Part shown: positions 1 through 35,704 of the stretch, piece by piece
How the letters are laid out: every line of letters begins with the position of its first letter
Numbering within the stretch: the first letter of the stretch is position 1
Source of the DNA: Catajapyx aquilonaris
Lineage: Eukaryota
DNA: 64,000 nucleotides
Direction of reading: 5' to 3'
Assembly (NCBI GenBank): GCA_000934665.2
Contig: KZ538168.1
Span: 1 to 64,000 of the forward strand
Made by a program: the position numbers and the translations under genes
Notes under the pieces: model-generated
The model's input: only the letters and a program-made list of their open reading frames with translations
Told to the model about the DNA's origin: nothing
Database searches by the model: none

Positions 1-2286
1 TAAACCGCCGACCCCTCCCACCACCACCACCTTTTACTCCACCAAATAGCATCGGCAATAGCAAGCGTAACTCCACCCACAACTCTGCCCCAACTACACC
101 TGACTCCACTCCCTCAATCCCTTTTGGAGATGCTGGGCAGGGACCGTGGACAATGCCGCACAGGCCCAATAATTCTGGTTTGTTTTCACACGTTTTTGTT
201 GTACTGTGAGAAGTGATTGGAATTTTTTGGGGTATGTGTATTTAGGTAGTGGAAGTGTGTCACCAGCAAGTGGCTCAACACCAAGAGACTTGAGGAGCTT
301 CTCGTGGTTTCATGCAGTGGAACGTGGACAGGCCGAAGCCTTACTGCATGGGAGTAAGTTCCTTGGTTGCTTGTTACAGTTTAAACTAGTGCTTGTCAGG
401 GTGTGCGTTAAATAAGTTAGCCATGGAGTATCTCATACCACAGCATTGAGAGTTTGATGTGGCATTTGATTTTTGGATTATGTAGTACACCTTGAGACAT
501 TTATGGTAAATAGGGAAAAGCGGATTTCCTTATTCGCTTCCTTAGTTACAAAAACATAGTTTGACATTCAATCTCAATTTAAGGGGGCACGTCGCAAATT
601 ATCCCAGTTTGTTAGCAGGACATTTCTAATGGCTTGCTCTCTGAGTGTAGAAGGTGGGTTGTTTGTGGACGATGAAATATCAACAAATTGGCAGGTAGAA
701 TTTAACAGAGAAAAGTAGCAGTAGTAGTTACAGTTGACCTGCTGTATTTCCAGGGGATTGGTTTTTTGGGACCTTCCACTGATGCTCAAGTACATTCATA
801 CAGGGTGTAAATGAAATAAGTGCACGTTTTTTGCAAAATGGTAGAGTGACTCGAAAGAAACATTTTTTGCTGATGCACTTGGTGCCCCAGATGCTTCGAT
901 AAGTCAGAAAACTAGGGTTTGTCACGTGTCACACAAACCAGGGTCCCCTACATGGTTGCACTCATGGAGGTAACCCTGATACAAACAAGTCATACCCTCA
1001 GTGACCATAGTAATACCATGGTTACCATGCTACTACAACAGTTGTTCCGTCAGACAATGACGTCACACACGTCAAGCGGTAGTAACCATAGTGACCACCA
1101 TGGCACAATGCTGCTGTGGTTTGGTTACCATGGTGGTCCACTATGCCATGGTTACCGCAGTTTGGCGTGTTTCTGACGTCATTGTCCGATGGAACAACTG
1201 TTGTAGTAGCATGATAACCATGGTATTACTATGGTCACTGAGGATATGACGTGTTTGTATGACACGTGACAAACCCTCGTTTTCTGACTTAACGAAGCAT
1301 CTGGGGCACCAAGTGCATTGGCAAAAAATGTTTCTTTAGAGTCACTCTACCATTTCTCAAAAACAAAACACGCACTTATTTCATTTACACATCCTCCCAT
1401 ATACTTTGAATCATCTCTAGATCACTTGTAATACCTGAAACAATATACGAGTATATGGTAAATACTTGTTATACTGTATGGTAGTAGGCCTACTTGGTAT
1501 GTGGCAAATTCAAGTCTTGCTTTTCAGAAATTCTTGTTGTTTTTTTCCTGGAATTTTCAAGCTGTGGGTGGTTGAATCCATGGATATGAAACCTGCAGAT
1601 AAAACGCTGACAATATATTGAAAATTATTGTACTCACAAGGCTTGCCTTAACTGTTTCTATCCTTGCATTTTAAAAATAATTCACAGATGCTGCTCACTG
1701 TTTGTTGCAAGATAGTTAGATGCTTGATATGCATATCCAGCATCTAACCATCTTGTCTAGTGAATGTGAGCTGACCAATTACAGGATCAGTCTCCTTCCC
1801 AATTTTTCAGCATTCCTGTTTCCCCCCCCCAGGGGAAAAAAAAAATCTATATGGCTTTGGCTGTGATAGTGAGAGAAATGTTGCATCTGCATCCTTTGCT
1901 AACAAAGGTGTACCATGCATCATACATTGATCATCGCATATTTATTAAGAAAGCATTTTTTCATCGTGTTGGTTTTAATATAAAGATGCTTTTTTTTAGA
2001 GCCTGATGGAACATATTTGGTCCGTGATTCAAGGCATGGTGGCACCAACAACCCCTTAACATTAAGCCTCTGGTATGGTGGCCGGATGTACCATGTGAAC
2101 ATCCGTCAGCGGGTAGATGGGAAATATGCCCTGGGGAAAGAAAAGGCAAATGAGCTCAGCTTTGTGTCTGTGGAGGAGCTTGTGACTACCCACCAAAGGG
2201 AGCAACTCAAGCTGCATAGTGGAGGTCAGGTCACTGGAGTCACATGTCTAGTGGCCACTGTATCAGCACAGGGAACTTCCCCATAA
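1..2286 (+). CDS. SLP-76/BLNK/CLNK-family SH2 adaptor, 3' part (5' end outside window)
   Basis: Exons <1..177 (Pro-rich NRRPLPPPPPFTPP), 246..353 (..FSWFHAVERGQAEALLHG) and 2000..2286 (KPDGTYLVRDSRHGG..LTLSLWYGGRMYHVNIRQRVDGKYALG..stop). GT-AG introns, phases consistent. A C-terminal SH2 after a Pro-rich region is the SLP-76/BLNK layout. Confidence 0.8.
731..1613. mobile_element. Decayed Tc1/mariner-pogo (Tigger-like) MITE interrupted by a foldback element
   Basis: Begins TA|CAGTTGACC; degenerate reciprocal end near 1570-1613. Boundaries approximate. Confidence 0.4.
805..1390. mobile_element. ~590 bp foldback / long inverted-repeat non-autonomous DNA element
   Basis: GTGTAAATGAAATAAGTG..GTGCCCCAGATGCTTCG..GGGTTTGTCACGTGTC is mirrored by GACACGTGACAAACCC..CGAAGCATCTGGGGCAC..CACTTATTTCATTTACAC; the inner part is also self-complementary. 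Confidence 0.8.
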
Positions 2287-2351
2287 CTGAGCCTGAAGTT
2301 GACATGACGCCAAAGTCAAGTGCCAATGGTGTCATACAATGAAAATCCGTA

Positions 2352-2451
2352 CGGTGAAACCTCGATTCATCATTTTTATCAGGGCCTCTGAAGAAACCCG
2401 ATGGATTCAGGAAAATGATGCATCTGGAAACGATCAATCAAGGTTTCACTG
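2352..2451. mobile_element. Tigger/pogo-like MITE
   Basis: TA|CGGTGAAACCTCGATT ... AATCAAGGTTTCACTG|TA terminal inverted repeats with TA flanks. Confidence 0.65.
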
Positions 2452-4468
2452 TATGTGTATTACATTGCATAATATTAGGGTGTGGCATCAATCCTGTTAA
2501 TTCATCTGTATTTCTTATGGCACAAAAGGACGTTCTAGATGTATTACATGTGTGAAATTGCCAAAATGGTGGCAAAAATTGTGGGATGCAAACTATTCCA
2601 AAGATAGTTCACTTTGTATACCAGTTGTAGGGCCCATGAAATAATGCTCTTTTTTTTTTTGCATATGTAAACCCAATGACTGAGGTGGAATTATGAAACA
2701 ATCACAATATTTCTAGTAACTTATATACAAGGAAAATTATTGCAGACTATGATTAAATTACTTTTGTAATGCATTAAGTTACTACAGAAGAAATGGTATT
2801 TCAGAATGATACACTGTATTTATGCAGTTTTATTATGAAGTCTGAGTGGTGCTTATTGTGAAGTCAAATTCCTGCATGATATTGCATACGGTATTATTGT
2901 TGCTTTTCATATGTGCCTTCATGCTTGTGCCTCGCCAAAGACGAGTCCCTTGTCAAAAATAAGTGCTTTGTAAAATGATGAACAAATGTTACTTTGTATT
3001 ACAGAGTATTAATCTAATACACTAAATGATATTTCTGTGGCATTTTATAAGAAGTATTTTTATTACAAGCCTCTTTCAGCTCATCTCAGATAACTGCCTC
3101 TATATGAAAGGAATGAGGTTACCACATGTTAAATTTTCAGGAATTAGATTTGTATACTAGTAATGCAAGTTAGGCAATCAGGTCAAGATAAAAGCAAATT
3201 ACCAGCGGTGTAATTCTTTGTCTAACCAGAATATATGAAAATTTATGGTCAACTTCTAATAACCAATTATTATTGGTTGGATAAAGTTTTCCCCTGGGCG
3301 TCTTGCTGCTGTTCTTTTCCTGTGTCTCATACACACTGTGTTTCATAAATAAGCTTGCACCTTTATTGGTAAAACTGTTGTGGATGTTTATTTGCATTTT
3401 AGGTATGACTCATAGTGGTAATTCCTGTTATTGCACTTTTCAACAGCATGTGTTACTTGCTGCCACAATTGACTGTGGAGCAACATGAGAGATGGAAGTA
3501 AGAGTCAGAGAGATTTTTACCAATACGGATGTGAGCTGCCTTATGACACATGTTGTATAATGATAGTAATGCACCCGCTTACATTAGTGCACAAATTAGC
3601 TGACCTAAATCTAAACAGGATTACAAGTGGTCACATTGCAGAAAAGGGCAGAACAGCACAGAACACTTGCTACTATACAGACAGACAGGTCCAGAGTTCA
3701 ATCATAAACTGCCATTATTTTTCTCATCACATGCAGAGTTTGAGTGTGTCTGCCATCATCTTGGGCGATCTTGGGTGACATTTCCAGTAGGCTACCCACA
3801 CAAGGGAAAGCAATAAAATGGCCCTTTACGACATTGCACCTCCCTCTCCCCACCCTGCCTCGCTCATTGGCCTGGATTTTGTGCAAAAGGCTCCATTTGG
3901 TAACGTGAAATAGCCAAGGTTTGTGCAATGCACCCCCAAGGGGCCAAAGCATTCTAATATATTGCTTACAAAAAGGAGTCATTGATCCTTATGTTCCTGA
4001 CATTATCATTAACCAATCACAGCACTCTTGCCTATGTTGCACTGTAATAGATAAGTGTTGCCACAGTCAATGGACGCATGAAGACAGGTGAATTGGAGCG
4101 TCAACAGTGGGAGGGCACATCAAGTAAAAGCGCCTTATTTGTCAGTGTTATTATTCACAGAACTTGATATCTCAACCAGGTAAAGGTGAAGGTACAAGGT
4201 AAAGTGGAAAGTCAGATAACAAAAGGTCAGATAATTGAATGAAACTGATGAAATACCAATAAGGAAAACTGGTGAAGACCTTGTGAAGGGTGCAGGATCA
4301 AGTATAATTATAACAGGGAAGTTCAACATGAATGATAAGAAGTGTTAATGACAACTGTGCCAGATAACAATGTCACTCCATGATAGTCGAGGCATGATAA
4401 GATCAGTACTGCAGTACCGGTGCGGCATCATATTAGTATGTAGTACAGGTAGTCTCTTTCTGCAAGAA

Positions 4469-7400
4469 ATGGCGGTCTTTCGCAAAGATTCACAGGATTT
4501 GTCAAATTCCCAAATGTTGGAAGTCATTGCTGAACTGCTTGACACTGAGCGGACATATGTGTCAGATCTGTGTAGCATCTTGACAGGTTACCAGAAGGAG
4601 GTGACAAATCCCGCATGGCAAGCTGCTCTGCCTCCAGAGTTAGTAGGGAAATCAGACGTTCTCTTTGGGAACCTTGACGAAATACACAAGTTCCACGACC
4701 AAGACCTATTGAGGAATCTAGAAAATTGCAGTGGGTCGCCTGAACTCATCGCAAAGTGTTTCATAGAGAGGGTAAGTAGAGCTACTAATCTAACCTTAAT
4801 TATTTCAGTTGCTCAACATATGCAACAATTTTTTACATTGTTCAATAATGGACTGTAAATAAATTACAAGTGTAGTATGTACTGAATGCTCTGAGATTAT
4901 TATTAAACTTAGGCTTGTGGTGTATCACACATACTTAGTAGGCCTACTGTACATTTACCCTTGTTACTCATTGATGGCTGATTGATGGTTGGTACTTGTT
5001 GCCAACAATTTTTAAAAATCTAAAACAAGTAATTTTTTATATGTGCACCATGGGCATGGCAACAAGAACAACACTAAAGTATAGGTCCACTAATGTAAGA
5101 GAAGCTTATTCAAAGTGCACTTTGACTCGTGCATGCACGTGTCATGCTAATTATTGCAACTGGCTGTTTCAGAAAGGCACCTTGCATCACCTGTACAGCA
5201 AATACTGCATCAATCGTCCAGAATCAGATGCTTTATGGCGGAGGTTTAGTGGGGAGAAAGATCATTTCTTTTTAGTGCACCAGAAAAAACTTGGCCACTC
5301 TCTATCTCTGTGTTCCTATCTTGTTAAACCAATACAACGGGTACCCAGGTACCAACTGCTTCTTGAAAATATGGTCAAATATAGCAAAGATGGAGAAGAA
5401 AAAGCAGTGCTACAAGAAGGACTTGACTGCATAAGAGGTGTAGCCAGTAATGTCAACAATAACATGCATGAAGCAGCCATTAGTGGATTTCAGGTAGGAT
5501 TTTACGTACGGTACAAGAATGCAAGCAGCTCACAGATTCCTTTTAAAATGTCAATCTGACATTTCCTCACAGGGGAACCTAGCAGACCGAGGTGAACTGC
5601 TTCTGCATGAGACCTTTACAGTGCACTCTAAGTGGAAGGGGCGCCAAAAGTATCAGGTGTCTCAAAGGAAGCACATGTTCCTCTACACTCAAACAATTAT
5701 CTTTTGTGACATAAATTCTGCAGATCCATATAACTTTTCCTACGAGTGTAATCATTATCTGAAGGTATCCAAAATGTCACAACCAATCATGCATATCTGT
5801 GGAAGAAGGTAAACAAATTACATTATTTTCATCCAGACATCTGATGTTGGCCTGACTGAAGAGGTCAGAGAGATCAGAAACAAAGACCTGTGCTTTGAAC
5901 TGTGGCTGAGAAAGTTTCAAGAACGTCATATTCTGGAGGCTCCAAGCTTGGCGATCAAGGAAGATTGGATTAGGGCAATGAGAGGACTTTTATTTCAACA
6001 ATACGGAATTTCAGGTCAATTTGCTTGCAAGCTCCAAGTTCCCTCTAATGTGTCCCCATGTTTCAAGTAAATGTCATTTATTTCATGTAATATACATGTA
6101 TTAAGTGAACAGTTCCAAAATTAATGACAAGATGCATTTCAGAAATGGAAGTGACTTGGCTATTCCTTCCTATGCTGGCTTCCCAAACTCAAATGGTGAT
6201 TGTAAAAAGTTTGAACTACCAGAAGAGCATATATATGAGCCTGAACCACTAGCTAACATTCAGGTGAGGAAGGCTTGGCAAATTGACGTAGCGATAGTTT
6301 ATACAGAAATGGTTGTTTTACAGGATGATAAACCACCAATTCCTGCAAAGCCGCAGATGTTACCTCACTTGCCTAAGATCAGCCAGAAGCCTTCCTCAGT
6401 TTTTACATCACCATCCAGCGAAACAACACAGCCAGTGTCAACAGTCAGGAAAATTTTGAATAGCGCTGCCCCTTTGGTTCCTATAAAGGTGGGAATAAAC
6501 TCAGCCAGTATTGTTAAACGGCATGCTAACCCTCTGCCACTGCCACAGGAAGAGGTAGTAGCTCGAAGCCTTATTGGACTGACCTTGAATAACTCTCTTC
6601 CATCTCCAAAACTCCTTCCCTCTTCCCTCCCATCACATCGACCCCCCCTCCCATGCCCCATCCTAAAAAGCCAAAATCAAACTTTTACTGGTGGCCATAT
6701 CCATCACCCCATCATGTCAAGCGAACCACATGCTTCCTCCCACCATCCTTTAGATCTGCCTGTATTGGCATCTCGCCACTTTCAATCACCTCCACATGAC
6801 CACATCCAAAGGAGTGGCTCTAACTCAATCACCAACTCCTCCAATAATTATTCTAGCTATTCCCTGAAATCAATGGACACCAGAAACTGGAAATCAGGTT
6901 GGTTTACAATTATTCTTGTTGTGGTCAGTCCTATCTGTGAAAACATTTTTATTAGAATGGGGAAAGTATTTTTCTGTCTCCCTGTATTTCATGTATCAGA
7001 AAATAGAAATACTGTGAAATCCCGATAACTCGAACCACCATGGGACCGAGGAAAAATTCGACTTATCAAATATGGTGGGAAAACAGCACCTGCACAAATT
7101 AACACCTGCAGTATGCATCTCGCTACTGGGACACCATTGCAAGTGACAGCTAGACAACTGCAGACTAGGGCCTCTGACTGCTCTGAGGCAAAAGGCAAAG
7201 GAATGCATGATAGGAAAGGGAGGAAAGGGAGGAAAGGGAGCTTAAATCACGTGACTTTCAGAGTGATTTGTGCATTCCTTCACAGCTTATCGAGAATATT
7301 AACCAGCTGGGGTGGAAATCTCCAAGAATGAATCATACCAAGAGCTAATAACTCCTAGTGGCGCACCGGTAACGCGCGCGCCCACGGAAGATAAGGTCCC

Positions 7401-8852
7401 GGGTTCAATCCCCTCCCGGGGTTCCCACCTTCTTTCGTGCAGAGTTGGGCCATCTCTGGCTTCGTTTCGGGTGGGAATTTCCGCTAGACTAACCCACCCG
7501 GGGGAGTTCACAAACTGACCAAGCAACGACATTGCACTTGCACTTTGCACATCCCCTCCTAATTACCCTTGGAACAATTAAATACATATATGTATATAGC
7601 TCCAAACCCCAAATGGTGGTAATCCACCCCCCTAGAAATGGCCTATCGGCCAGATAACGGGGTACAGTACAAATATTTTTTTAAAAAAAAACAACAAACC
7701 AAAAAAAGAAAAAGAAAAAAAAAACTCCTGGTGAAACTTGTTCTCCTGATAAAGGTACCACGAGTGCACAGGCTGATTCCACTTCCTCATCCAGTGAATA
7801 GTCCAGCTGGTCACTACAGCTCTTTTGGCAACAATTTCATAATGGGAGACCCCTGCACTTTCCTTACTTTATTAGGCCTGTGTCTGCAGAAGGATACACG
7901 AGTGTATCTGCCGGGAAGGAAAGTTAGGTCATGGGTTATGGTACAGTGTAGTACCCCTACCTACCCCTGCCAAATTCGGTCAACAGATATCAAAGTCTTT
8001 CGTGTTCTTCTCGTTACTGTGCACATGTATGTTGCAATGGAACAATCCCGTCCCACCCTGAGGTAAGATAAGGAGGACCAAATCTATATGTAGCAAGGGT
8101 AATAAAAACTTCCTGTATTTCCTAATACCCTACAGATGTGTCGCCACTATTAAAATCCCAACATTTCAACAAACTCTCATCTCAATTTTCTAATATATTC
8201 AATGCATGAAGAAAGAAAAATTCGCTTCCCCTAAATCTTGAAAAAGTATAGTACTGATGTCATAGTGGCTAACAATGTCAACAGTGACTTTAGCAATTAT
8301 TAAAAGCTTGTGACTATTATGATAGAATAAGTAATAGTTCAAAAGGTTACTAGTTTCAGACTACTTATTCAGGCAGGGCTACTGCAGCTGAGCTTCCAAG
8401 TGCCAGAAGGGAACCACAGAATTTTACATGCTTCCCTTGGTTTCATCAAGTGAACCGGAGCCAGGCTGAATACTTGCTGCATGGAAGTAAGTTTCATACT
8501 GCATGTTTCATTTCGAGTAAAATTATACCCTAGACGTTTCAATCCTCTAATATTGAACATTGGCTCCCACGTTTATGCAGAGGAGGATGGCACATATCTT
8601 ATTCGTGAGTCACAGTCTGGTGACCCAAGCAGCCCTGCAAGCCTCAGCCTCAGATACACAGACCACACATACCACATAAAAATTCGTCAGAGGCCAGACG
8701 GGAAGTATGCTGTTGGATCAGAAAAACCACATGAATGCAGTTATACATCCATAAAAGAACTAGTAGAGGAGTACCAGAGACAGCCATTGAATCTTTACAC
8801 CAGCCAAGGTCAGAATGCAGGATCGGTGTGTCTCATGGCTACCTCATACTAA
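4469..8852 (+). CDS. RhoGEF (DH-PH) - Pro-rich - SH2 protein, ~708 aa
   Basis: Exons 4469..4771, 5173..5493, 5573..5764, 5837..6066, 6143..6263, 6324..6897, 8373..8486, 8581..8852 (2127 nt, open frame, all GT-AG). DH motifs VIAELLDTERTYVSDL, LFGNLDEIHKFH, YLVKPIQRVPRYQLLL; PH motifs GELLLHETF, FELW, KEDWIRAM; SH2 motifs PWFH, DGTYLIRES. Start could be ATG 4370 or an upstream exon. Confidence 0.8.
7357..7724 (+). mobile_element. tRNA-derived SINE
   Basis: A-box-like AGTGGCGCACCGG, B-box GGTTCAATCCC, A-rich tail 7683-7724, flanking AACTCCT repeat (TSD-like). Confidence 0.7.
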
Positions 8853-9928
8853 TGAGCCTATGGTAAACTTCACTACCAATATCTGGTCAATCATCCCTGC
8901 CCACCAGAACAGCTAGCAAAAGCTGTACTGCACAAACTGCTGCACAGTGCAAATTGAAGAATGAAAAGACCTGCATATACAGTTGTAGCTCAAAAAAATC
9001 TGAACAACTTTTTACAGGGAGATGGTGCAGTACTTGAAACACGCTCAATTGCACTGAATGTCAAGTACTATACCTGTCCTACTCATTCCTTGCAATGGGA
9101 GCCCACTCAGCTCAGCCCCTTTCTTCCCCCATCCAGTGTTGCATCAATATCATGGGGGGTTACATTCTTATTCACTGATATAAATATTCCTATGTTCATT
9201 TACTGATGGTAATAAAGCAGCTTTCCCTCCACTATGTAATGTGTCGTAATGTAGGTCAACTGTATGTATGCCTGAGTCAAAGTAATCAAAAGTGTAAGGA
9301 GTGAAGGCACTGCTCAAATCTGAAACCCCCATACCTCAAAATCATGCCAGGGTGATTGATTTTTGTCAGGTGTTCACTTGTGATAGTTGCTTCTCAGGCT
9401 AGTTGCTGGAATATACACCAACCACAACATTATTTCCCACTTGCACTGTGGGCTTTTGCAGGGTAGGCTTATAATTATGCCAGAAGTCCTGTTAGCATCC
9501 CCTTGTAACTTCTGAAGTCACACAGAAAGGATCTAGATTTAGGACCCCTTGCATGTTTATTTCATCCGGAAGTGATAATCCTATGCAAATAACATGGTTG
9601 TTCTGGATGGACCAACGATCATGTGCTGACCCCACTATGCAAGAACTTCTCAAGTTTATGAATTTTTATTATGCAGGTAGTGCTGTGCCATGATTTGTCT
9701 CAGATAAAAATTGTGATTTCCATATTCAATTCAACCTTCAATGCAGGAGCCTGGGATTTAAAATAATGGATTCATCTCATATGTATCCATGATGTGAATG
9801 TCCTTTCAATCCTAGGAAAAAGTGTGGCATTCATGGAACCATACGATGTTAAAAGGGTTTGTTCAAAGGGGGGCTGCCCCGACTTAGCCTTACAGCTTGC
9901 ATGAACCATACAGTATCATGGAACCATA

Positions 9929-10266
9929 CAGTAGAACCTCAATTATGTGACTCCTCCGTTTATACGACCAGGACCTTCATGCTCCGGCAATAAATATATT
10001 TTTTCATCAAATAGTGTAATTTACTCTGTATTTGTTTTGTATTGCCTTAGTTAAATTGTAAATACAGCACAGTAGAGTGTGTAGGGCCTATGTAAGAGCT
10101 AACTACTTCACTATTTCTTAGAAAACCACAATATTGTACATTGTTTCATGTTTTTGTTTTATGTGATGTTTCATTAAAGTTTTCTTTTCTCTTTGGATAA
10201 TCTGACCTTTTCTGTGTTCAGACCTTACCCCGGGCCTGTGGGTGAAGGACAATCGGGGTTCTACTG
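9929..10266. mobile_element. Tigger/pogo-like MITE
   Basis: TA|CAGTAGAACCTCAATT ... AATCGGGGTTCTACTG terminal inverted repeats. Confidence 0.6.
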
Positions 10267-10350
10267 CAGTAAATAATACATTAGACGTAATGTAAACATA
10301 TGTGAAGTTTTATTGACTAAAGCTAATAAGGGAAGGCATTGTCTTTCACC

Positions 10351-11004
10351 TCAAGTCTTTGTAGGGAGGGCCTGAATCTCTTCTTGACAAGTATCATACA
10401 CATCCTGGTAGTCGCTGTCCTCCTTGATCAGAACCATGAGGCAAGGTCGCTTATACCCCATGGCTGCAGACAGGTCATGCCTGGAGGGGGTGAACACATA
10501 GGGTAGAGACTTTGATTCGCACACTGCAGGCATGTGGATCATCATGTCCACGGGGGTCACATCCCCTGCGAATATGACAAGGCCACGTTGACCTCTACGG
10601 ATCCCTCGCTGGACCGCCTTCAGACCATTCAGGACCTGGCCCTTCTTCTTAGAGGCTGTGAGGTGCACACAAAAGATTAGTGACTCTATGTGGAATTTCC
10701 GTCCCACTGCTAGCTACTGCTAACTTCGCAGTACCACCGGTACCACTGCCAACACTGGCACTGCTACAGTGACTAGCAGCAGGAGGAAAATTCGAAGACC
10801 CATATCATCAGCCAGTGGGTGGGTGAGTGATGACCGACCTTTCTTGACCAGCTTGTAGAGCTTCTTGGCCAGCTTCTTGTTGGCGACCGGATCTGCGATG
10901 ACGCTCATGTACTTGAGCTTCTCCGAGTAGTCCTGGCTCTTCCCGTCGGACGCCTCTACGTCCGCATCATCGGCCGGCTCCTCCTTCACCTTCGCCTTTC
11001 CCAT
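10351..11004 (-). CDS. NHP2: H/ACA ribonucleoprotein complex subunit 2 (L7Ae family), 156 aa
   Basis: Exons 11004..10839 and 10655..10351 (471 nt). IADPVANKKLAKKLYKLVKKA..NGLKAVQRGIRRGQRGLVIFAGDVTPVDMMIHMPAVCE..PYVFTPSRHDL is NHP2-typical. Confidence 0.93.
10693..10793. repeat. ~100 bp hairpin repeat (GAATTTTCGTCCCACTGCTAG family), in the NHP2 intron
   Basis: Inverted termini; related copies at 25051-25523, 32256-32363 and 32790-32878. Confidence 0.7.
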
Positions 11005-11346
11005 CTCTTTCACCGGTCACCGGGTTTGTCAGCAACAAGCAGTACGGACACAGGTACTCCCGTGTCACCACAGCAGTGTGTGTCACAGGTACGTACAACC
11101 ACGACGAACGGCCGACCACGCTGTTCTCCGTTTCGCAGCTTCCCTACGCTCACACCAGGCGGCGCCCCAAACAAACGTCGTCGTTTAATTGAATTCTTCG
11201 ATCGGTACTCACTTAATAATTTTAACGTTTTAATTCGCCACATGATTTAACGAGTGGATTTTAATGTGTTTAGTCGCAGGTGATGTGCACGGAGGCAGTG
11301 TTGCCAACTGTAACGAGGAAGTGAAGGCACTCAAGGCAGGCAGCAG
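11005..11346. promoter_or_regulatory. Probable bidirectional promoter NHP2/WDR11
   Basis: Head-to-head genes, CpG-rich. Candidate WDR11 5'UTR donors after 11346 or 11441, acceptor before 12582; CAGTGTTGCCAA motif at ~11297. Confidence 0.5.
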
Positions 11347-12293
11347 GTGACTGCTGTACTACACACGGTGTGGTATTTGGCCCGATTTGGATTCCTCCAG
11401 CTGGATTCGCCCCGGGTTGACAGCCGCTCCTTCAGGGGCAGGTGGGTGCGGGGCACGCCCTGGGGGCCGAAGAGGGTCGGGGGAAGTGGATTGGACAGGT
11501 CAGGGAGGGATCTATGGTCTGGCCCTGCAGACTGCAGATATGTGCTCTTGTTTATTGTTGTTCCGTGATGTCACACCTAATTGCAGAGTAATTAACACTG
11601 GCTGCACCCTCTCTCAGGGCACTGATCACACTAGACTTTTGCATGCGGTGCCTGTTGCACCAGCAGGCCCTCAATCTGTCACGGATTATATGCATTTTTG
11701 TGTCGTGATGAGAAACTCATTTAAGTATCAGCCTGATCCAGCTGTTATATTATTGTGCAGTATAGTATGACGTATTGTATGGCAAGTACTGCAATTGTAC
11801 TGTATGGCCAATTGAATGACACCAAGGACTACACATTGAAAAATTATTAATGACTAATACAAAGTTGCACATTTGCAATTATTCTAGTAGCAGCAGTGTG
11901 GCAGCTAGGCATGCATGTGAGCCATGTTGTACACACCAGGCAACTTAATGACATTTTTCCAACTTGGAGGGAGGGCATAATTGTGGAAGGAAGCCATATT
12001 AGCAGCACCTTAAAGCCAGTCGTTGTTATATCAGTAAAAAAAAAGATTAAGGCATTTCATGTTGCAAGGCTTCAACAATTTCTCAGGAATGCTAGTCAGG
12101 GAATGAATATACAAAATAATGTACAGTAGCACCTGATGTACAGTGCTGCATATTGATGTTGGGGCAGAGATGTCACCTTTCTTTCTCTGCACTCTTTGCA
12201 ACATGAATGTCTTATATATAGCTCCAAGAGTGCAGTGTAAACATGAGTGTAGATTATTACAGTTACCAGCTCTTGCAGTTACACATCTCAGAG

Positions 12294-12441: not shown

Positions 12442-12589
12442 TCTCAGAGCCAGCTCTCTTGAAGCAGCACATCTGTTATAGATTATATTTTGCTCTATAA
12501 GTAGGGAAATTCATTGAAAGTATTATGCCACATCCAAGGTTTACAGAACTGATTTATGTAAAATCATTGTTTATGTTACAGGTTCAAAT

Positions 12590-15500
12590 ATGGTGCCAGC
12601 ACCAACAGAGGAGAACTCACCTCCAGCCAGCAGCAGTGATGACCAACAGCAGAGTGCACAGCAGCAAATGACCAGCAGCATGACCCTGCCGCTGCGCATC
12701 CCAAACATTGCTTGCAGGACTATCGCTGGAGTGGCCAATTCCCAGAACAGAGGTGCAATTGACTGGGGTCCCCATGGGCTAATTGCCTATGGCTGCAATT
12801 ATGCTGTAGTGGTGGTGGACTCCACCAATGTGCAACCTGTGCAAGCACTTGACAGGCACAAGGCAATGGTGACCCAGGTGCTGTGGGGGAGGTGCCCACA
12901 GCCGACCTCACCAGACACCACGGCCTTCCATCCTCCACTGGCATCGGCTGATGCAACTGGTCACATCATAGTCTGGGATATCATCAAGGGGGAGCCATCA
13001 GCCGTGTTGCATGATGGAAACAAGCCAGTTATTGGTGCGTTAGTTTAAAGCTCGCTGTTTGCTTAATTGCTTCTGCTAAGTTTACTTTGTTGACACATGG
13101 TAACAACATTCTCAATTGGCAGATATGCAGTGGATATCAGACCTGGAAGAGGAGCACAACTACTTGGCTGCATTGCACCCACCTTACGCCCTTGTTGTTT
13201 GGGATGCTGACTCAGGGTCCAAAGTATGGCGCAAGACCTACACTGAAACCCTCCTTGGCATGGACATGGATCCTTTTCAGGCCCGCCGACTGGCCTTCCG
13301 CTGCCAAGAGTGCATTTTGCTGGTGGAAGATTTCACCCTAGCAAAAGTACCCTCCAGCAATGGGAGGAAGTTTCACGTGTTTGCCCCACAGAGATCAAAC
13401 ACACCTTCTAGAGATGAAACAGGAGACAAGGGAGAGAAAGCAGCAAAGAGAAGTAGGCATGGGTTGGGACGGCTGGTGAGGGAGTTGGTGGCGGGCGAGG
13501 GAGGAAGCAGGCCACGGGCAGACTCGATGGGGGCCATGGCAGGGGCAGAGGGAGGAGGAGCTGGTGGAGGAGCAGGACTGGCTCACAGGGAGTGTCTGCA
13601 ACTATCTTTTCATCGACTCCTTCCACATCATTTGCTGCTGCTCTTCCCCACTGAGCTGCTTATCTTGGACCTACATATCTTCCAGACTGTGGGAATTGTA
13701 CCATTGGAAAAAGTGTCTGCTCCCCTCTGCCAGGTGAGATTTATGGTCAAGTGAAGCATAATGTGGCATAGGCTGAGTTAATTAAGTTCTGATATGCAAA
13801 AAAACCAACCATATTGATTGTATTTGTGCCTGCAGAGAAGTTTTTTGTGCTGTACACATTAGTTCACATCCAGGTTGCAGTTGGGTCAATGAAAGTAGCC
13901 TTAGACTGAAGAGAGTAGGGAAAAAATAAGTTGTAAAATTTCTCCCTCTGATGTACAGTTGAATCAGGATATAACAGACTTCAAGGGACGACATAAATCA
14001 GTCTGTTATAACCAAGGTCTGTTATAGCCGAATACACAACCCATATATGGAAGTGTGACGCGACCGGCCTTTCCAGTCTGTTATAACCGAAAATCTGTTA
14101 TAGCTGAGGCTGTTAGATCTGTATTCAACTGTATTATGTAGATTACAGAAATAGTCCCTTGTTGCATAGGTAATATCCTGTAAGCAGCGAGATGTCCTCT
14201 ACTGTCTCCATGAATCAGGAAACATTGGAGTGAAGTTCCGGAGGCGTACAGGAGGTTCTGTCCCACAGACACCTCTCAGTACAGGTAACAGTCTGTCATA
14301 ATATATTGTACACTGTAAACTTTGGAATTAGGCATCAGCTGCTTGTCCTGATGTGAAAATCTCAATTAACTGTCAGTGATGTTCAAATCTCAGATGTCTT
14401 CTTCATGCCAAAAACCTCACTTACTGAAAGTTACTTTATCCTTGCAGAAAGTGGGCCTCCGTGGGACCCCCCATTACCAGAAGTGAGCTATGAGCAACGC
14501 TGCCAGAGTGATGCCCTTAGGCTGACCAAGAACACCAGAGTGCTTGGTTTGGCTTGTGACCCCATCAGTGAGAAGCGACTTGCCCTGTACCTTTCCAATG
14601 GCCGCATAGTTTTCCTTGAGCTCTTAATCAAGCCAGGACCTCCAGCATCTGGGTTTTGGGGGGACTTTGCTTGGGATGGTCCATTACCTCCTCCATTCCC
14701 TTGTGATTCTGTGGGTGATGTGTTGCCAAGTTCCACGCTAAATGCTGACCGAGACGGCATTTTTGTGCCCTCTCCCACAGTAAAGTTGATGCAGACAGGT
14801 CTCTTGCCAAGTCTGGGGGCACCACCACTGGTTGTAAAGATGTGCCTGCCGCTGACCACGCACAATTGGCAGCAGTATGTGCCAAGGTTGGCTGTTGGGA
14901 CACCCACAGGAGCCATACAGATATTGGATATGGAAACAGGACTTGTGGAAAAGGAGCTGTCTGTTCACACTTATCCTGTTAGGTATGTAACCAGAAAAGT
15001 GCTATGGCGTGTAGAATTTTAAAAATCGGTATCCAATGAAGATGGGAATTAATATTATATTTTATAAATTAGACGACTTTGCACTTGCCAGTACATCTGA
15101 ACAGTAAAGTTGTTCAATTATTTTGTATAGGAGTTGCACGCAATTTTTTACATGTCCAAAAAATGAGTTTTATATCATTTTCATATTAGGTCATTTTGTC
15201 TGCAAAAATTGCTGCTCCTTTTATTTATTTATTTGGGGCAAAATGTGAGGTGGTGATGTTTCATGTGTCTATTTTTGGCAGAGGAATTGAATGGACAGGC
15301 CTGACTTCCTTCTTGTCACATGGATACCCCAACACCAGTGGCCCAGGAGGACTGTTGAGAAATGAGTTTGTTCTTACTGACATTCTGACCGGAAGGAGCC
15401 TTCCGCTGAGGGTGGACAAGGGGGATGAATCACCCATAGAAATCGTTAGGGTGTCTCCTCTCAAGTGAGTAAGCTGCTTTTATTTTGTGGAAATCACTAG

Positions 15501-18500
15501 CAAGTAATGTTTTTCAGGTACATGGGTGTGTTGTCACTACACATTGCATTTAGAATGTGGGTTCCATATGGGGAAGAGCCCATGGCCCATTGCATGCTGC
15601 AGTTGCATGACAAGTAATTACCTAGAGAGAAGAAAAGATGGTATACAATATGCCACACATTGCAAGTTGAAATTGGTAGAAATGCACCCAATTTGCTGCC
15701 TTACCTGTATATTTTTAACAGTGCAAGTGATACTTGTGAAATTCCCAATTTTGTTGGTAATATTTATTTGCATAATGTGTAGAGTAATTTCTCAACAAAT
15801 CGGGACATTTTTATAGCATTAAATAATATATGTTAATACATCAGCAGCATTTACCTCCGATATTAATTAAAGAATATTTTGCATTGTCAATGAGTTGCTT
15901 GAAAGGATCTTGCAGCAGTTCAGTGATGCGATTTTCATTGAGAAACATTGACACTCGCTGGAGGTTCTTAACTGCTCCTGGTGCAACTTTTTCAATCTTA
16001 TTGTTGGCTAGGTAAAGAGTGACGAAGCCTGGAGACTTGTCAAAATGGAGTGATTCAGGTCCCAGTTCATGCAGCTGGTTAAAGTCCATCCAAAGAAACT
16101 GCAGATTTGTTAGGCCTGAAAAGGGGCAAATGCAGGCCACTTCCACTTCGGCACATACTCAGGCACCAGTGTATTCCATGCATGAAACCAGTAACCTTAT
16201 TTTTATGTGAACCCTCACATTTATCTGTACTACAAAATCTAAAATGTGAAGTACAGGAGGGGCTGAGGATCAAAAACCGGCAACTGACATTTTCAAAAAA
16301 AATTGATAGGCATGGCATATGGTTCTTAAGGGTGCCCTGCACATTACCTCTGAATGTGGTATCAAAACAATCTCTCCTTCCCATGGTAATCAAGGGGATC
16401 AAAACCCTCCAACTACAGAACAAATTTTCATGAAATGTGAAACAAAAGCCACCGACTGCAGTGTCTGACATGGCTACTTCAAAAACCACCAACTGCAGTG
16501 TCTGACATGTCTGCGTCAAAAACCGCCAACTACTGTGTGTGAAATGAGTGAAGAAATAATGCAATAATTGCATCCACCATTGACTTTTCGCATCAAAAAG
16601 CGCCAAGTACATTGTGTCGGAATCAAAACCCACCAACGGCAACAAACAATATTTAATTGTTGATGAACTAATGCAAATAGATTTCAAATATATTGATATA
16701 TCAATAGCCTCTGCGCATACCATACCGCTTACCAAAGTTGACCTCAGTATCTGTTATGGTAATGAAATGACATGTTTTTCTCAAATATCTCCGTTTTACT
16801 CTGCATGTAGTTGGATGGTTTTTGATTCTCAGCCCTGTATGATTGGAATAGGTTCCAGCAAACCAGGGTTGTAAAATAAATAGTCCTTTAATGGGGCTTG
16901 TAAACCTGAGTACATCTAAAGACCTGATGCAATGCACCACGAAAAGTAAAAGAATAATTGCCTATAGTGTGTTTGGACTTGGAGGTTTTGTGGTGATGTA
17001 ACGTTTCCGTTTCATTTCAATTCTTTAAAGGGAATGTGAAGCGTAAAATGAAGCCTACTGTTCTGCCTATTTCTAGTTTCATGATTAGTTTGATGTTGAT
17101 TATTATTAGTTTCATGCATGGAGTCATAAACTTGAATGATGCTTCCTAACCATGGAAGGCACCCTTTCCAATGCTCTGGATTTTGTTGCTTGCCAGGTCT
17201 ATTTTAGCAAGGGTCGGGTGTTCACCAAATGCCTTATCGGGAATGGTACTCAGAAGGTTGGACCCTAACCATATTGAGTGAAGAGCTGTGAGTAGTTTGA
17301 GACTTTCATATGGAAAGTCAGTGAGTTGGTTGCCTTCTGAAAAGTGTGAAATATTGACCTCGTCAATGAATTGAACAGCATTTTGGGTATGCATTTATCT
17401 CACCCAAGTTGAGGATGCGCATTCTCTCTGCTGAGTTGTCAAATGCATCTGGAGCAACAGAGCTGAACATGTCATTCATAAGATACAGCTCCTCAATTGT
17501 TAAGTTCCCAAACAGGTCAGAAGTGATAGTACCACCCACCATTCCTGTCGACACATCCAGTCTACGTAGATGTTGGCTTGGAAGGGGTTCAGACATGATG
17601 TGCTTCATTTGCTTCTGGTTGTTTATCTTGTCACAGTACAGGCTTGGTGCTTCGGATGTAGTAAGGGGTTCTTCACACTAATATAATATTATAAATAAGA
17701 TATATTCACGGATTTGCATAAAAAGTTACTTACTAAACATGGCCTGATAATGTCAGGAGGTGGACACAAATGTTGAGGGTCAGGGCTTGAAATTCCCACT
17801 TGTGCTAGTGCAAAGAACAATAGTGAAATCATGTTGAGTGAATTTGATCTTGCAAGGACCAATATGAATGATAAGAATTGCATGGTGCATTTATAGCCCA
17901 GGTGTTATCACCAATTGTTTGATATGTTATGTATTCAAACACTGTTAAAATCAAAATAAGAAGGCAGTTATGTCATTTCTAACAGAAGATAAAATTTATG
18001 TCATTTGATAATTGTGCAACTTTGCTTCACTTACGTAACTCTAACCTGATGAACATGTTTGTTTAGTCTCTTGTTTTGTTCACACCCATGACATCGAAAA
18101 TATATCACATTCATTTAAATGTTGGGCAGCCAAGTCGTAGGTTTTTAGGTGGTCAAAAGTAATCTTTGTTGATTAGAGGAGGAATAGTCTAAGTTTTATT
18201 TATTGATAGTGATTTGTCTAGAGCAGGAAGGTTATGAATATGAAACATGATTTAAGTAGTATAGGCTGTAACACATCAAATGTAGACAATTTACGAGATT
18301 TACGAGAATTTCTATATCCTCCTGAGACCGGATGTCCTATATATTGGACATCAGGTCTCAGGAGGATATGATTAATTTCGGATCAAAATCTGTCATGATG
18401 ACATCACAGCATTTTTGTGACACTCCAGTTGCTCCTAGCTAAGTTTGTGCAGCTTTCTTGCCTTTCCCAGCCCTTCGTGAGTAGCAAGGTATGCAGATGG

Positions 18501-21500
18501 ACAGCTGGAAAACCCAGGAAAGCTGCACATGTAGAGTTTTGTAGCATGGGCAAAACTCAAGGTGTTTCAAACGTGTAAAATGACCTTTGAATCTGCAGTA
18601 GTATGATTATTGATCGCTGAAGATATGTTTATTATTGTATATGTTCAATGCAGGCAATACTTCATAGTTGCCTTCAAAGAAGATCCATTTGAACTGTGGG
18701 ACTTGAAAAGCTTGACTCTACTGAGAACCATGCCGAAGAAATCACCTATAGTCACTGCTTTGGTAAGTTACACTGTAAAGACATTTCTTTCTAGCTTATT
18801 CTGAATGATTTCATATTGCAGGAATGGTCGCCATCTCACAGTCTTAAATCACAGAGACGAAAAACAGAAGAAGGCCCAGCTGGGAGGCGAGAATCTAGTA
18901 TGTGCCGTTCATAGTAGAGTTGTCACTGAATTATTATGACCTGACTTTCGGCTCTGTGTATAAGTTTGATCCAATAAATTCTGAGAATGATTAAAGACGG
19001 TTGACGAAAAGATGATCCCCTAAGAGGCTAAAGGAGGCCTATCACGGGGTATCCATTATTAATATATTCATGAGATATATTGCCTCACTCACATTACGCT
19101 AATTGAGGGGCTCGCAACAAGAGTGGTTCAAGTCACAAAATGTTGTTTCCGAGAAAATGGGACTTAAAGTTAATGACTTACACTGAAGTCATTTGTGATC
19201 AAATATTAATCGTTGCGGTTCAAGTCGTCCCCGAATTTTTCTGCACGACAACCAGTATTGCACATGAAAGATGGTATCGCGATGATGCCAATGGTATATG
19301 TAACTTTTTTCACTATTTTTTGTCACTTGAACTGCTCTTGTTGGGAGCCCCTCAATTGCATGTGAATGCAGAAATGGATATCAGCTTCTGAAAGTTTGAA
19401 GGTGTCTTTGTTGCAATGTAAAAGCAGACCAGGAAGACTAGATGTACTGAATTTGGTTTCTTTTATCACCTCCAAAGTTCATGTTGTCAAATTTAATTCT
19501 TCAACAGCCTCTCGAGATCCCATGTCACCAACTACAGTAGCACCTGCTGTGGCTGCCAAGGAGCACTTTGTGTTCACTGACACAGATGGACAGCTGTACC
19601 ACTTCACTGTGGAGGGGAGTGTAATTCGTGATGGGTTTAAGATCCTGTCTGACCCATCTCCTGGAAGTGTGACCTGGGTGGCTTACAAGGGGGAGCTTAT
19701 CGTCAGGGGTGACACGGATGGGAACATTCATGTATGGGATGTCAAGCTGAGGTCATCCAGATCCCTCAGCAGCGGATCTCGATCAGGATGGGTCCACAAA
19801 ATGAGGTTTGCACCAGGAAGAGGGAATCTCAAGCTACTGGTTTTGCTCTCAGAAGCTGTTGAGATTTGGGACCTCAAGGAGGTTGGTTGATTTTCGCTTG
19901 GTGACATAGAGTTGATGTGTAACACCCATGCATTTGTGTTGGACAGTTCCAGCGAGTCTCGCAAATAAAGTGCCCAAAGGACATGGTGAAGGTGGTGGAT
20001 GGGGATTGGGTTGCATCAGACAAACCCGTGTTGGCCACACAAGATGGTTGCCTACGGATACTTGACCTGAGCCTTGCCACCACATCTTCCCCCATTCATT
20101 CTTACAACCACAAAGGTAAAGCATAGCCTCATAACCAAGATCTGATGATTAATATGTGCACTCAACTGTTCCAGACCAGTTGCTGTGTCCTATGCTACTT
20201 CCACCCCTGGCTGCTTTCCATCTACGGGCAATGCTGTCTAGGGGTGACCCGTTAGAAGCAGGCCCAACTATGAGCCAAGAAGATCGAGATAGTATGTTTG
20301 TAATATTGTAACCTTGCTTTTTTCTACAGTTTGTGATGAATCTTTCAATTTAATTCAGAGGTGGACGAGCAATTGGAGCTGCTTAGCCCTGAGTTGATTG
20401 AGCTGCTGGGGAATAAGTCACTCACAACTGCCCATCGTAGCCTGCTGGTAGCTCGTCTTTATGGACATGTAGCTGATGTTGAGTTCTGGACCTTGGCTCT
20501 GCACTACTTGCAGGCAGCTAAAGATGGAACTTTCTCAGAGGTTGGTTACCAAAATGCAATCCTTTTCGACTTAATGATGCATTTAATAATAGCAGGGAGA
20601 ACTTATGGGCTCCGACGATTTGCTTCTGGAGCTGCGGCCGAGAACGAAGGGAACGGTGGTACCATTGGAGCTTTGCTATGATATCCTGTGTGATCCACGT
20701 ACTTACAAGGTAGGCATGTGCTACACAAGAATCAGAGTAATTTTTTAAAATCATGGATTTGGTCACACTGTGCAGCATGGCACATACTTTAGACAATTGA
20801 AGGGGTCGGTGCAATACTGCCCTAACCCTCCCAAACCTGATTTTGAGAAAACTGCAGTTGAAAGTTTGAGAGGCCATATACATCCCATATACCATGTGAC
20901 TTATTTCATTTGATTTCTCAGTGACCGATGGCAGAAACTGCACAATTTCAATGGATTTTATTAGATACATGAGTGTAGTACATGGAAGTGTGCTTAACTC
21001 AATTTGTGTCATTTGGTGGGTTAGGGCGGTATTGCACCGACCCCTTCAATTAAAAAGGAGTGGGAGCTGTCACTGAAGTAGCTCAATGCTCAAATTGGTT
21101 TTAGTTCCTGCCATGCTGCATTTACCTTCCATGTGACAGCACCCTTAAATGAGGAGAGCAGATGGCAAGATGTGCACCTGAAGTGGGTGTGCATATGTCC
21201 CTCAAGTTCTTTGTAATTCCCCTGTATTAGTTAATCTGAAAGACCAAGGAGGACAAAGCATCAGCCTGACATTTTCTTATAATTGTATGTAATGTATTTC
21301 TAGCGTTACCAAAAGGAGCGTGTGATGTTGCATGAAAGCAAGCGCCTGGGCTATGATCAGACACAGCGTGTGGTGAGCCAGTTGGTCTTTCTCCGTGAAC
21401 CTGAACTTGCTGTCCAGCTTTTGCTGGAAACAGAGCTTGACCATCCACAATACTATTCTGATGGCCTCCGTGCCTGCCTGGTAGCAGCAGCCAGGGCCTC

Positions 21501-22538
21501 AGGAGAAGGCGCCCAGAGCACTGTCAAGCTAGTAGCCACCAATCTGATCGCGAATGGACGACTGTCAGAAGGGGCACAACTTCTGTGCCTCATCGACAAG
21601 GGAGCTGATGCAGCCAGGTACATACAATCATCAGTTTCCAAACAAAAAATGCTTAGTTAAATATTTAATTGTAATATTCACAATGAACAATCATAGGAAT
21701 CTCGGCTGAAAATATTCCTACTATTACACTCATCAACTGAAATCAATTAATAATTCCTTTACTTATAGGTACTTGCAGTCATATGGTCAGTGGGAGGAAG
21801 CAGCTTGGCTGGCTAGAGCAGGCCTTCCTCAAAAGGAGGCAGCAGAGGTACTGAAGCGCTGGGCTGATCACCTAGCTGCCCAGGGTCGGAGGACAAGGGC
21901 AGTGTCACTTCTGGTGTCACTAGGTCTCTTTGAGAAGGCGTTGGAGATCATGGCGTCCATGACATGCAGGCTCAGAACTGCCCTGTTTCTTCATGCCTGC
22001 CTGGAGTTTGGAGTCATCAAGAGGAGTCCTGATACTGATATCCTTTTCATATTGCTGTCATGTTGCACTGCCATCCCTGGTGTTGGTTTTAAGGACAGTT
22101 GATGATAAAAACTTCTCTTTTTTCTGCTCTCCAGCTCAGCTTTTCAAATTAACACCATATAGAGTGAGAGTTAATCTCTAATGTAACTCACTGTCAGTGC
22201 TGTAACCACATGCAGATCATCCCCAGCTCCCAATGGAGGTTACCCACAAAATAAGCATAAAGCCACACCCAGCAAGACTATGCAATTGTAGAACTAGGTG
22301 GAACCAGAATGCATGTTTTAAGTTTCACCGCACGGGCAGTGCACATTATAGTCTTTATTTTCCTTAACTGCAGCCTATACAACCTCTCTTCAGGGTCATC
22401 AACTTGGATTACGCTCGCCTCTTATTTGAATCACGACTGCTTCCAGGTGCTTTATCTGTTTGTAACGAGCTGGGTGAAACTGGGTCTCAACTGCGGAAAG
22501 AATTCGAAATACTGGCTCCTGAACTTGGAAGCCACTGA
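12590..22538 (+). CDS. WDR11: WD repeat-containing protein 11, ~1256 aa
   Basis: 15 exons: 12590..13034, 13123..13733, 14170..14284, 14448..14982, 15282..15464, 18654..18762, 18822..18897, 19508..19881, 19947..20115, 20175..20291, 20359..20540, 20596..20709, 21304..21617, 21769..22037, 22381..22538 (3771 nt, in frame). Motifs NRGAIDWGPHGLIAYGC, KEHFVFTDTDGQLYHFTVEG, MRFAPGRGNLKLL, STVKLVATNLIANG. Confidence 0.92.
13956..14131. mobile_element. Tigger/pogo-like MITE
   Basis: TA|CAGTTGAAT ... ATTCAACTG|TA with repeated GTCTGTTATA motifs. Confidence 0.6.
15497..17883 (-). CDS. Secreted leucine-rich repeat protein (signal peptide, LRRNT, LRRs, LRRCT), nested in WDR11 intron 5; 314-331 aa
   Basis: Exons 17883..17734, 17677..17404, 17336..17151, 16115..15855, 15621..15497 (996 nt, in frame). 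Hydrophobic N-terminus, CPPPDIIRPCLC cap, LxxLxLxxN repeats (LRILNLEGNQL-like, LHSIWLGSNLL, LAKIDLASNKI), GNYLSCNCSMQW C-cap. Resembles arthropod LRR proteins often annotated 'oplophorus-luciferin 2-monooxygenase non-catalytic subunit-like'. Confidence 0.82.
18314..18369. repeat. Short palindrome (minimal TE remnant)
   Basis: ATATCCTCCTGAGACC-GATGTCC .. GGACATC-GGTCTCAGGAGGATAT. Confidence 0.6.
20797..21049. mobile_element. MITE with ~35-40 bp TIRs (Kolobok-like termini)
   Basis: TTGAAGGGGTCGGTGCAATACTGCCCTAACCC ... GGGTTAGGGCGGTATTGCACCGACCCCTTCAA. Confidence 0.75.
22038..22380 (+). other. U12-type (minor spliceosome) AT-AC intron of WDR11
   Basis: Donor ATATCCTTT at 22038, branch site TCCTTAAC at 22361-22368, acceptor AC at 22379-22380. 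Splicing restores the frame to the WDR11 C-terminus (..INLDYARLL..). Confidence 0.88.
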
Positions 22539-34792: not shown

Positions 34793-35704
34793 GCTTCCAA
34801 CACACGGTATCGGATTGGCACCACTGGCCATCCGAGGGTGGCACTCATGGAATCACGTCGCGTATTTCAGTCGCTGTTCTGTGACTGTAGCTAATACTTC
34901 TGAACAAAGTTTGCGCAGGGCAGTGACAAGTTTTGATAAGTGGTTTAAAATCACCAAACTACTTGTTATGTTCTTCGTGGTATAGTGTAGAACGAAGGAC
35001 TAACTCTGGTAAGGACAGGGTGTACTGAGGACTGGAGAACCGTAGAAAACATTTGTGACGAGCTATTTAAAAACGTGTCCTAGTAACTGCTTCTTTGATA
35101 TAGCGTTTATTTCATTTCACATCATTTTCTTATACAGTACCGTACAGTACCTGGGCATAATGTTTTGCGATGTTTCACTTACGGCCCTATTTTGCTGGAA
35201 CCCCGCCGTCAAACTGGGGCTGCATTAGATGCGATTAGATGAGTCGAGTACGCACTGTACGTAATAAATGCGGTGTTCGATGGGCTTGCTGTATCTGTAT
35301 GTGATGCACCTCGGCACCTGCACCTCTCAGTACCTGTAATGTCAAGGGAAACTATGCCTCAAATGGGCCTAACCGCGACCCGGAGCTCTATGTTATGGCA
35401 AGCTCTTGGTTATGGTTATGGTAATCATTTGCATTTGCGAGATATATGCTCTTCTACATCATCAGCCTGCTCACCCTGCTGTATTCGAAGGCATGATAAA
35501 GCAATGATAAAGTGTGGTCTCTGGAGAGAAGCCGGGAATATATATTGTGGACGGGGTCAGAGTACTCGTGGATCCTTTCATTACGTTCCAGTACACAAAG
35601 GGCTATACGATGTTTTCTCCCTTTTTTGCCCGCTCGATAGACTCGGCATGTAAGCGACGTTGCCAACTCAAACCCCACTACTGTGTAGACTCGGCAACCG
35701 TGCC

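Follow-up and report, generated by a model that had tools for sequence, protein, structure and literature searches.

A predicted gene of Catajapyx aquilonaris joining a Dbs-type DH-PH cassette to a BLNK/SLP-76-type SH2 domain

We analyzed a stretch of 64,000 nucleotides (nt) from Catajapyx aquilonaris (GenBank assembly GCA_000934665.2, contig KZ538168.1, positions 1 to 64,000 of the forward strand; here called the window), in which a predicted gene on the plus strand at 4469..8852, termed gene B, brings together domains of two signaling families. Its exons are predicted to encode a DH-PH module of the Dbs/MCF2L type, a long Pro/Ser-rich linker, and a C-terminal SH2 domain of the type present in the adaptors BLNK and SLP-76. 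Our preferred reading, to which we assign a probability of about 0.65 from the sequence data at hand, is that gene B is one fused, lineage-restricted chimera. A tandem paralogue, gene A, lies at the start of the window. The DNA is animal-like and nuclear, with a G+C content of ~40-50% and short GT-AG introns.

Exon model of gene B and affinities of its two halves

Splicing of the eight predicted exons, every border of which is GT-AG, gave 2127 nt, i.e., 708 codons and one terminal stop at 8850-8852. This is exactly the intact eight-exon frame of ~708 amino acids (aa), with the same coordinates, that an earlier sequence-only reading of this DNA had proposed, and the sequence bears out the two junctions that this reading named, 6066/6143 and 6897/8373, as well as the in-frame TAA that it described (6068-6070). 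A Pfam scan, which it had suggested as a check, recovered DH, PH, and SH2 on the predicted exons. The DH domain is divided between exon 1 (4469..4771, aa 1-101; RhoGEF profile positions 1-79 of 180, expectation value [E] 5.6e-12), which also holds the candidate start ATG, and exon 2 (5173..5493, aa 102-208; positions 86-180, E 2.6e-18), each encoding one half. The PH domain is divided between exon 3 (5573..5764, aa 209-272; positions 1-50 of 106 of the SOS1/NGEF-like PH profile SOS1_NGEF_PH, E 6.4e-7) and exon 4 (5837..6066, aa 273-349; positions 58-104, E 1.8e-5), which also encodes a 28-aa tail and ends in a split codon. Beyond intron 4 (6067..6142), exon 5 (6143..6263, aa 349-389) carries the acidic tyrosine motif EEHIYEPEP and exon 6 (6324..6897, aa 390-581) the Pro/Ser-rich linker, in which PxxPx[KR] occurs twice, at aa 393 and 439. 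The N-terminal part of the SH2 domain, with the conserved Trp603 and Arg609, is encoded by exon 7 (8373..8486, aa 581-619), and its main part, together with the stop codon, by exon 8 (8581..8852, aa 619-708). Pfam assigned no family to exons 5, 6, and 7. In exon 8 the SH2 profile was matched at positions 20-77 of 77 (E 1.1e-8), and alignment with the paralogue and the family showed that the missing start of the domain comes from exon 7. The first AATAAA past the stop codon, a candidate polyadenylation signal, lies on the plus strand at 9211..9216.

Homology backs five of the seven splice junctions, three of them through alignment with a Dbs-type protein and junctions 6/7 and 7/8 through colinearity with gene A and P0001, a database protein described below. 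The N-terminus of gene B is uncertain: the frame is open upstream to 4352 and contains extra ATGs at 4370 and 4394, while the ATG at 4469 has an A at -3 and a G at +4. Intron 5 (6264-6323, 60 nt) is in frame and free of stop codons, and its retention would add 20 residues and leave the protein unbroken; this intron therefore has no bearing on the question of one gene or two. Intron 6 (6898-8372) is 1475 nt long, whereas its counterpart in gene A has ~68 nt, and no Pfam family was found in its 14 open reading frames (ORFs). It contains a G+C-rich stretch at ~7350-7480 and an A-rich run at ~7676-7722, a suspected insert of the short interspersed nuclear element type. The stretch at ~7350-7480 looked tRNA-like by eye, an assignment that was rejected when ARAGORN and Rfam found nothing in positions 1-12000.

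The DH-PH half had been described as Trio/Dbl-like, and comparison with solved structures narrowed this to Dbs. For both DH exons the best structure was that of Dbs/MCF2L (94 bits for exon 2 and 75.6 bits for exon 1), with Trio/Kalirin (~51 bits) and Vav (~31 bits) below it. A word-index protein search with exon 1 gave only two matches, both of them mayfly proteins annotated as "guanine nucleotide exchange factor DBS-like" (P0159 and P0160, 1275 and 1212 aa), the identity of exon 1 to P0159 being 53%. These two proteins contain CRAL_TRIO_2, PF23289 (which we take to be spectrin-like), RhoGEF, SOS1_NGEF_PH, and SH3_1. Residues 19-339 of spliced gene B aligned with residues 764-1089 of P0159 at 43% identity over 327 residues (264 bits, E 6e-79), and as the alignment had no gap at the exon 1/2, 2/3, and 3/4 joints, these three junctions are confirmed. 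The DH domain is complete, judged by the two profile segments given above and the continuous alignment with P0159, and the PH domain follows directly C-terminal to it. In the structure-match alignments the blocks LLDTER, QR..RYQLLL, and N..MH, which presumably have catalytic roles, agree with Dbs. In the ESM Atlas, the DH exon matched generic RhoGEF clusters only, and word-index searches with exons 8 and 2 gave no match in an index that also missed P0001, later found by HMMER.

Homology to the DBS-like proteins, and with it the DH domain, begins at aa 19 of exon 1, and none was found upstream. Searches of the gene B exons, the 56 ORFs of positions 1-4500, and the 14 intron 6 ORFs detected no Sec14/CRAL-TRIO, spectrin-like, or SH3 domain. 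The gene B exons also gave no Pfam match to CH or C1, in line with the claim that the layout differs from that of Vav. From these comparisons we conclude that the predicted DH-PH module is of the Dbs/MCF2L type within the Dbl/Trio subfamily.

The SLP-76/BLNK character claimed for the SH2 domain held up in the structure comparisons as well. Exon 8 alone was closest to the SH2 domain of BLNK (2eo6, 33.7 bits over 82 residues), followed by that of ABL (28 bits). A two-sequence profile made from the last exons of genes A and B (A1) scored 51 bits with BLNK 2eo6, 34 bits with p85, and ~23 bits with Vav. Among 1.84 billion representative proteins, A1 had 643 matches at E <= 1e-3, of which 150 reached E <= 1e-10. 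In nearly all of these 150 relatives the SH2 domain is located at or near the C-terminal end; the nearest named ones are called "B-cell linker protein(-like)," and the rest are unnamed or bear unrelated automatic names. When the best 75 of the 150 were analyzed with Pfam, all 75 had SH2 and none had RhoGEF; SAM occurred in 8 of them and a kinase domain in 1. We also calculated a quick maximum-likelihood tree of genes A and B and the 109 relatives with a near-complete SH2 domain, 41 of the 150 having been dropped as incomplete. Gene B, gene A, and P0001 formed one group in this tree, with a support of 81 in the Shimodaira-Hasegawa-like approximate likelihood ratio test (SH-aLRT). Twenty columns are conserved in at least 80% of the 109 relatives, and gene B keeps 17 of them (relatives: median 19, minimum 15), the three changes being L>V, F>Y, and P>S. 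Arg609 and Arg627, presumably the two phosphotyrosine-binding arginines of SH2 domains, are both among the conserved columns kept. The predicted SH2 domain of gene B is thus of the BLNK/SLP-76 adaptor type.

Gene A (1..2286, plus strand) is represented in the window by its 3' end, its 5' part lying beyond the window edge. It comprises a Pro-rich exon extending to 177, an SH2 exon at 246-353, and a last SH2 exon at 2000-2286 with the stop codon at 2284-2286, and it ends 2.2 kb upstream of gene B. Its two SH2 exons are 47% and 52% identical to exons 7 and 8 of gene B, respectively, and the introns have the same positions and phases. The presence of gene A upstream would explain the source of the adaptor half of gene B. 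The closest relative of gene A is P0001, a contiguous database protein of 311 aa that lacks DH-PH. The identities of 60.7% between gene A and P0001, 48% between genes A and B, and 39.7% between gene B and P0001 indicate that P0001 is the orthologue of gene A in another species, and the duplication that gave rise to genes A and B is probably older than the split from that species. The idea that the N-terminus of P0001 represents the end of a PH domain, in which case gene A would have a DH-PH part too, was discarded, since the local alignments scored no better than shuffled sequences (255 and 171 of 300 shuffles scored at least as high). Two nested inverted-repeat pairs of 111 nt (93% complementary) and 92 nt (92% complementary) lie at 828-1363, inside the last intron of gene A, and look like a hairpin or an insertion resembling a miniature inverted-repeat transposable element.

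Between the two halves, aa 350-595 consist of 14% Pro and 15% Ser and include four tyrosines, in agreement with the long Pro-rich region noted previously. The PxxPx[KR] motifs, PPIPAK and PLVPIK, are predicted SH3 ligands. Alignment of the linker with gene A and P0001 is confined to its last ~55 residues, at the end of exon 6. The acidic tyrosine motif of the sequence-only reading is indeed present at 6222-6248, with Tyr380 as its tyrosine; it does not, however, have the strict form Y-[ED]-x-P, since the sequence reads Y-E-P-E-P, with E at +3, and is a single near-match. Of the 67 relatives with a length of 400 aa or more, 35 have a strict Y[ED]xP motif upstream of the SH2 domain, compared to 10.0 +/- 2.5 in shuffled sequences, and P0001 lacks tyrosines altogether in the part preceding its SH2 domain. 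Amphioxus slp76 is described as retaining a DYEPPP site (PMC5431462).

Intron 4 and the alternatives to a fused gene

The splice 6066/6143 is the single link between the DH-PH and adaptor halves, and the question of fusion therefore rests wholly on intron 4. If this intron is left unspliced, the frame stops at the TAA at 6068-6070, and an ATG at 6133 opens a downstream frame. Several features argue that it is spliced. Its ends (GTAAAT...TTTCAG), its length of 76 nt, and its correct phase all match the other introns, the neighboring ones having 79, 72, 60, and 94 nt, and the donors confirmed by homology in this gene (GTAGGA, GTATCC, and GTTGGT) do not surpass its own donor, GTAAAT, in strength. 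As the first ATG past the acceptor at 6142, located at 6145, is out of frame, the acceptor is sensible only as part of a cis-splice from exon 4.

A number of observations nevertheless weigh against a single fused gene, and they are considered here together with the explanations that draw on them. The locus might yield two products, a 349-aa DH-PH protein ending at the TAA and a BLNK-like adaptor of ~360 aa translated from the ATG at 6133 or expressed from an internal promoter, with the GT..AG pair unused or rarely used. Both frames are readable as they stand, the ATG has an A at -3, and the intron 4 donor is imperfect in that it lacks a G at -1 and +5. P0001, a 311-aa adaptor without DH-PH, indicates that short adaptors can exist on their own, and DH-PH is absent from all 150 nearest SH2 relatives, none of which was matched by gene B aa 1-350 in a phmmer search at E <= 10. 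On the other hand, the distance from the stop codon to the ATG would be only 62 nt, with no AATAAA or ATTAAA inside the intron, whereas ~0.5-2 kb separate the other ORFs with Pfam domains in the window; the donor-acceptor pair, its spacing, and its phase match the other introns; and no SAM or other 5' adaptor exon was found in 2287-6142. We consider the two-product arrangement, which is the main rival of the fusion, unlikely. Alternatively, gene B might be a young evolutionary accident, in which the tail of a duplicated adaptor was stranded behind a fragment of an exchange factor and is unexpressed or drifting toward a pseudogene. The SH2 branch of gene B is long (0.73 in the quick tree, compared to 0.26 and 0.21) and could reflect relaxed constraint, the linker is unconserved except for its last part, and intron 6 is swollen in comparison with gene A. 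No orthologue of the same architecture was found among the 150 SH2 relatives or in metagenome scans, where the DH exon retrieved no relative and the SH2 profile a single locus, L001, on a 2.6-kb contig with 256 nt upstream of the match, too short to reveal the architecture. These points must be set against a frame that is open for 2127 nt over eight exons with intact splice sites, an SH2 domain with only the three changed columns listed above, and a DH-PH module that retains 43% identity to a distant insect Dbs, and we judge such an accident to be quite improbable. A further point against the fusion is that gene B has no strict Y[ED]xP motif upstream of its SH2 domain; the junction 6066/6143 itself is predicted from sequence logic.

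Still less probable, in our view, is that further exons precede exon 1. In this case gene B would represent the Dbs orthologue of the species, its SH3 tail having been swapped for a BLNK tail, with exons for the Sec14 and spectrin parts upstream of the window and gene A nested in an intron. A pyrimidine run followed by AG at 4466-4467 could serve as an acceptor before the ATG, the frame is open upstream as noted above, and canonical DBS-like proteins do have CRAL-TRIO and spectrin-like domains. Yet homology to these proteins does not extend upstream of aa 19, the only Pfam domain in the 56 ORFs of 1-4500 is the SH2 of gene A, nesting of a complete paralogue on the same strand would be unusual, and the ATG at 4469 has a suitable context. 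The single fused chimera remains the reading that we prefer.

As a separate observation, positions 215-866 of L001 encode a BLNK-like SH2 domain that is split by an intron inside the domain and shows 38% identity to the profile; the contig is a eukaryotic genomic fragment among those of the metagenomes.

Genomic neighborhood of genes A and B

The remainder of the window is gene-dense. Downstream of gene B we located NHP2 (10354-10713, minus strand), WDR11 (12518-22100, plus), a JAZ-type zinc-finger gene (22590-23831, minus), MRPS18 (25845-26204, plus), Nup85 (27638-29290, minus), a sideroflexin gene (30999-34852, minus), an ORF with a PWWP domain (36589-37758, plus), and an adducin gene (47701-51443, minus). 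Leucine-rich-repeat ORFs on the minus strand at 15844-17394, within the span of the plus-strand WDR11, possibly belong to a gene nested in a WDR11 intron. The human adaptor genes lie in comparable company: SLP-76 (LCP2) at 5q35 near SFXN1, ZNF346, and NHP2, BLNK at 10q24-26 near SFXN2-3, ADD3, and WDR11, and CLNK at 4p16 near ADD1. If these human positions are right, the arrangement suggests that genes A and B occupy the ancestral neighborhood of the adaptor family.

Comparison with known systems and proposed mode of action

Gene B shares with Dbs/MCF2L the DH-PH cassette, in which the PH domain follows directly after DH and conforms to the SOS1/NGEF-like model as in P0159. It differs in that P0159 and P0160 possess a CRAL-TRIO/Sec14 domain, a spectrin-like region, and a C-terminal SH3 domain, none of which was found in gene B, where a Pro-rich linker and an SH2 domain come after the PH domain instead. 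In the literature, Dbs/MCF2L is placed in the TRIO subfamily of Dbl-like RhoGEFs (PMC5499878). With BLNK, SLP-76 (LCP2), and CLNK, gene B has in common the C-terminal SH2 domain of the family type, the Pro-rich region before it, and an acidic tyrosine site, and it adjoins a tandem paralogue of the plain adaptor type. In contrast to these adaptors, its N-terminus is a DH-PH enzyme module and not SAM, as in SLP-76, a coiled coil, which forms the N-terminus of BLNK, or nothing, and it has the single tyrosine site YEPEP in place of the strict motif of many long relatives. N-terminal domains are variable in the adaptor family: amphioxus slp76 is reported with SAM and WW, the sea squirt protein with neither (PMC5431462), and a BLNK-like protein of a sea star with the order SAM...SH2 (PMC11593052). 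The architecture of gene B is unusual, but it is built from known kinds of parts, in a family whose N-terminal domains were already known to vary.

Vav offers a functional analogy, as it combines a Dbl-type DH-PH module and SH2 in one chain and passes tyrosine-kinase signals to Rho GTPases; coupling of tyrosine kinases to Rho through an SH2-bearing guanine nucleotide exchange factor (GEF) is textbook knowledge for this family. The Vav layout CH - acidic - DH - PH - C1 - SH3 - SH2 - SH3 is not that of gene B, however, whose DH domain is nearer to Dbs and whose SH2 domain is nearer to BLNK, which argues that the combination arose independently of Vav. SLP-76 and BLNK recruit Vav via the SH2 domain of Vav, as set out in section 4 of a review (PMC6562523), which also calls Vav the only SH2-bearing GEF of this kind. 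In the available text of a survey of the Dbl family, the mentions of SH2 are limited to a general enumeration of accessory domains and the key of a figure legend (PMC5499878). Our literature search, which covered the main texts of articles, found no paper on a DH-PH protein other than Vav with an SH2 domain. The sequence-only reading knew of no description of the architecture, and this can stand provisionally, given that it was found neither among the 150 nearest SH2 relatives nor in the literature; for the time being we regard the combination of DH-PH with a BLNK-type SH2 domain as absent from print.

For the origin of gene B we propose that a BLNK-like adaptor gene was duplicated in tandem, that the downstream copy came to lie behind a four-exon Dbs-type DH-PH cassette, and that the 76-nt intron 4 now removes the DH-PH stop codon. 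The product of ~708 aa would consist of an N-terminal Dbs/MCF2L-type DH-PH module, a disordered Pro/Ser-rich linker of ~245 aa, and the C-terminal BLNK/SLP-76-type SH2 domain. By analogy with the two families, the SH2 domain would dock on a phosphotyrosine of an activated receptor or kinase complex and thereby place DH-PH at the membrane complex, where it would load GTP onto a GTPase of the Cdc42/RhoA type, the specificity that we assume for Dbs. The N-terminal Sec14/spectrin part of Dbl and Dbs is autoinhibitory, and its removal activates these proteins. As this part is missing, we propose that gene B would be controlled mainly by localization. Tyr380 and the PxxP motifs could recruit further SH2 and SH3 partners. 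One chain would then do what vertebrate SLP-76 and BLNK achieve by binding Vav. The proposition that gene B is real, spliced as modeled, and functional, which would make it the first SH2-bearing exchange factor of the Dbl family besides Vav, is tentative, and we give it somewhat less than even odds.

Invertebrate genomes commonly contain novel domain combinations, and the fusion has so far the status of a gene model; both points limit the weight of the finding. If the fusion is confirmed, gene B would represent an independently evolved counterpart of the SLP-76-Vav complex in covalent form, and gene A beside it would preserve a rare "before" state next to the "after" state. A second, independently assembled SH2-bearing GEF would mean that this wiring was found more than once by exon shuffling. 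With one half derived from Dbs and the other from an adaptor that normally recruits Vav, the protein would provide a compact natural test of whether recruitment, and not relief of autoinhibition, suffices for the control of a Dbl-type GEF. It would in this sense be a natural experiment indicating that phosphotyrosine-directed localization alone can regulate a Dbs-type GEF.

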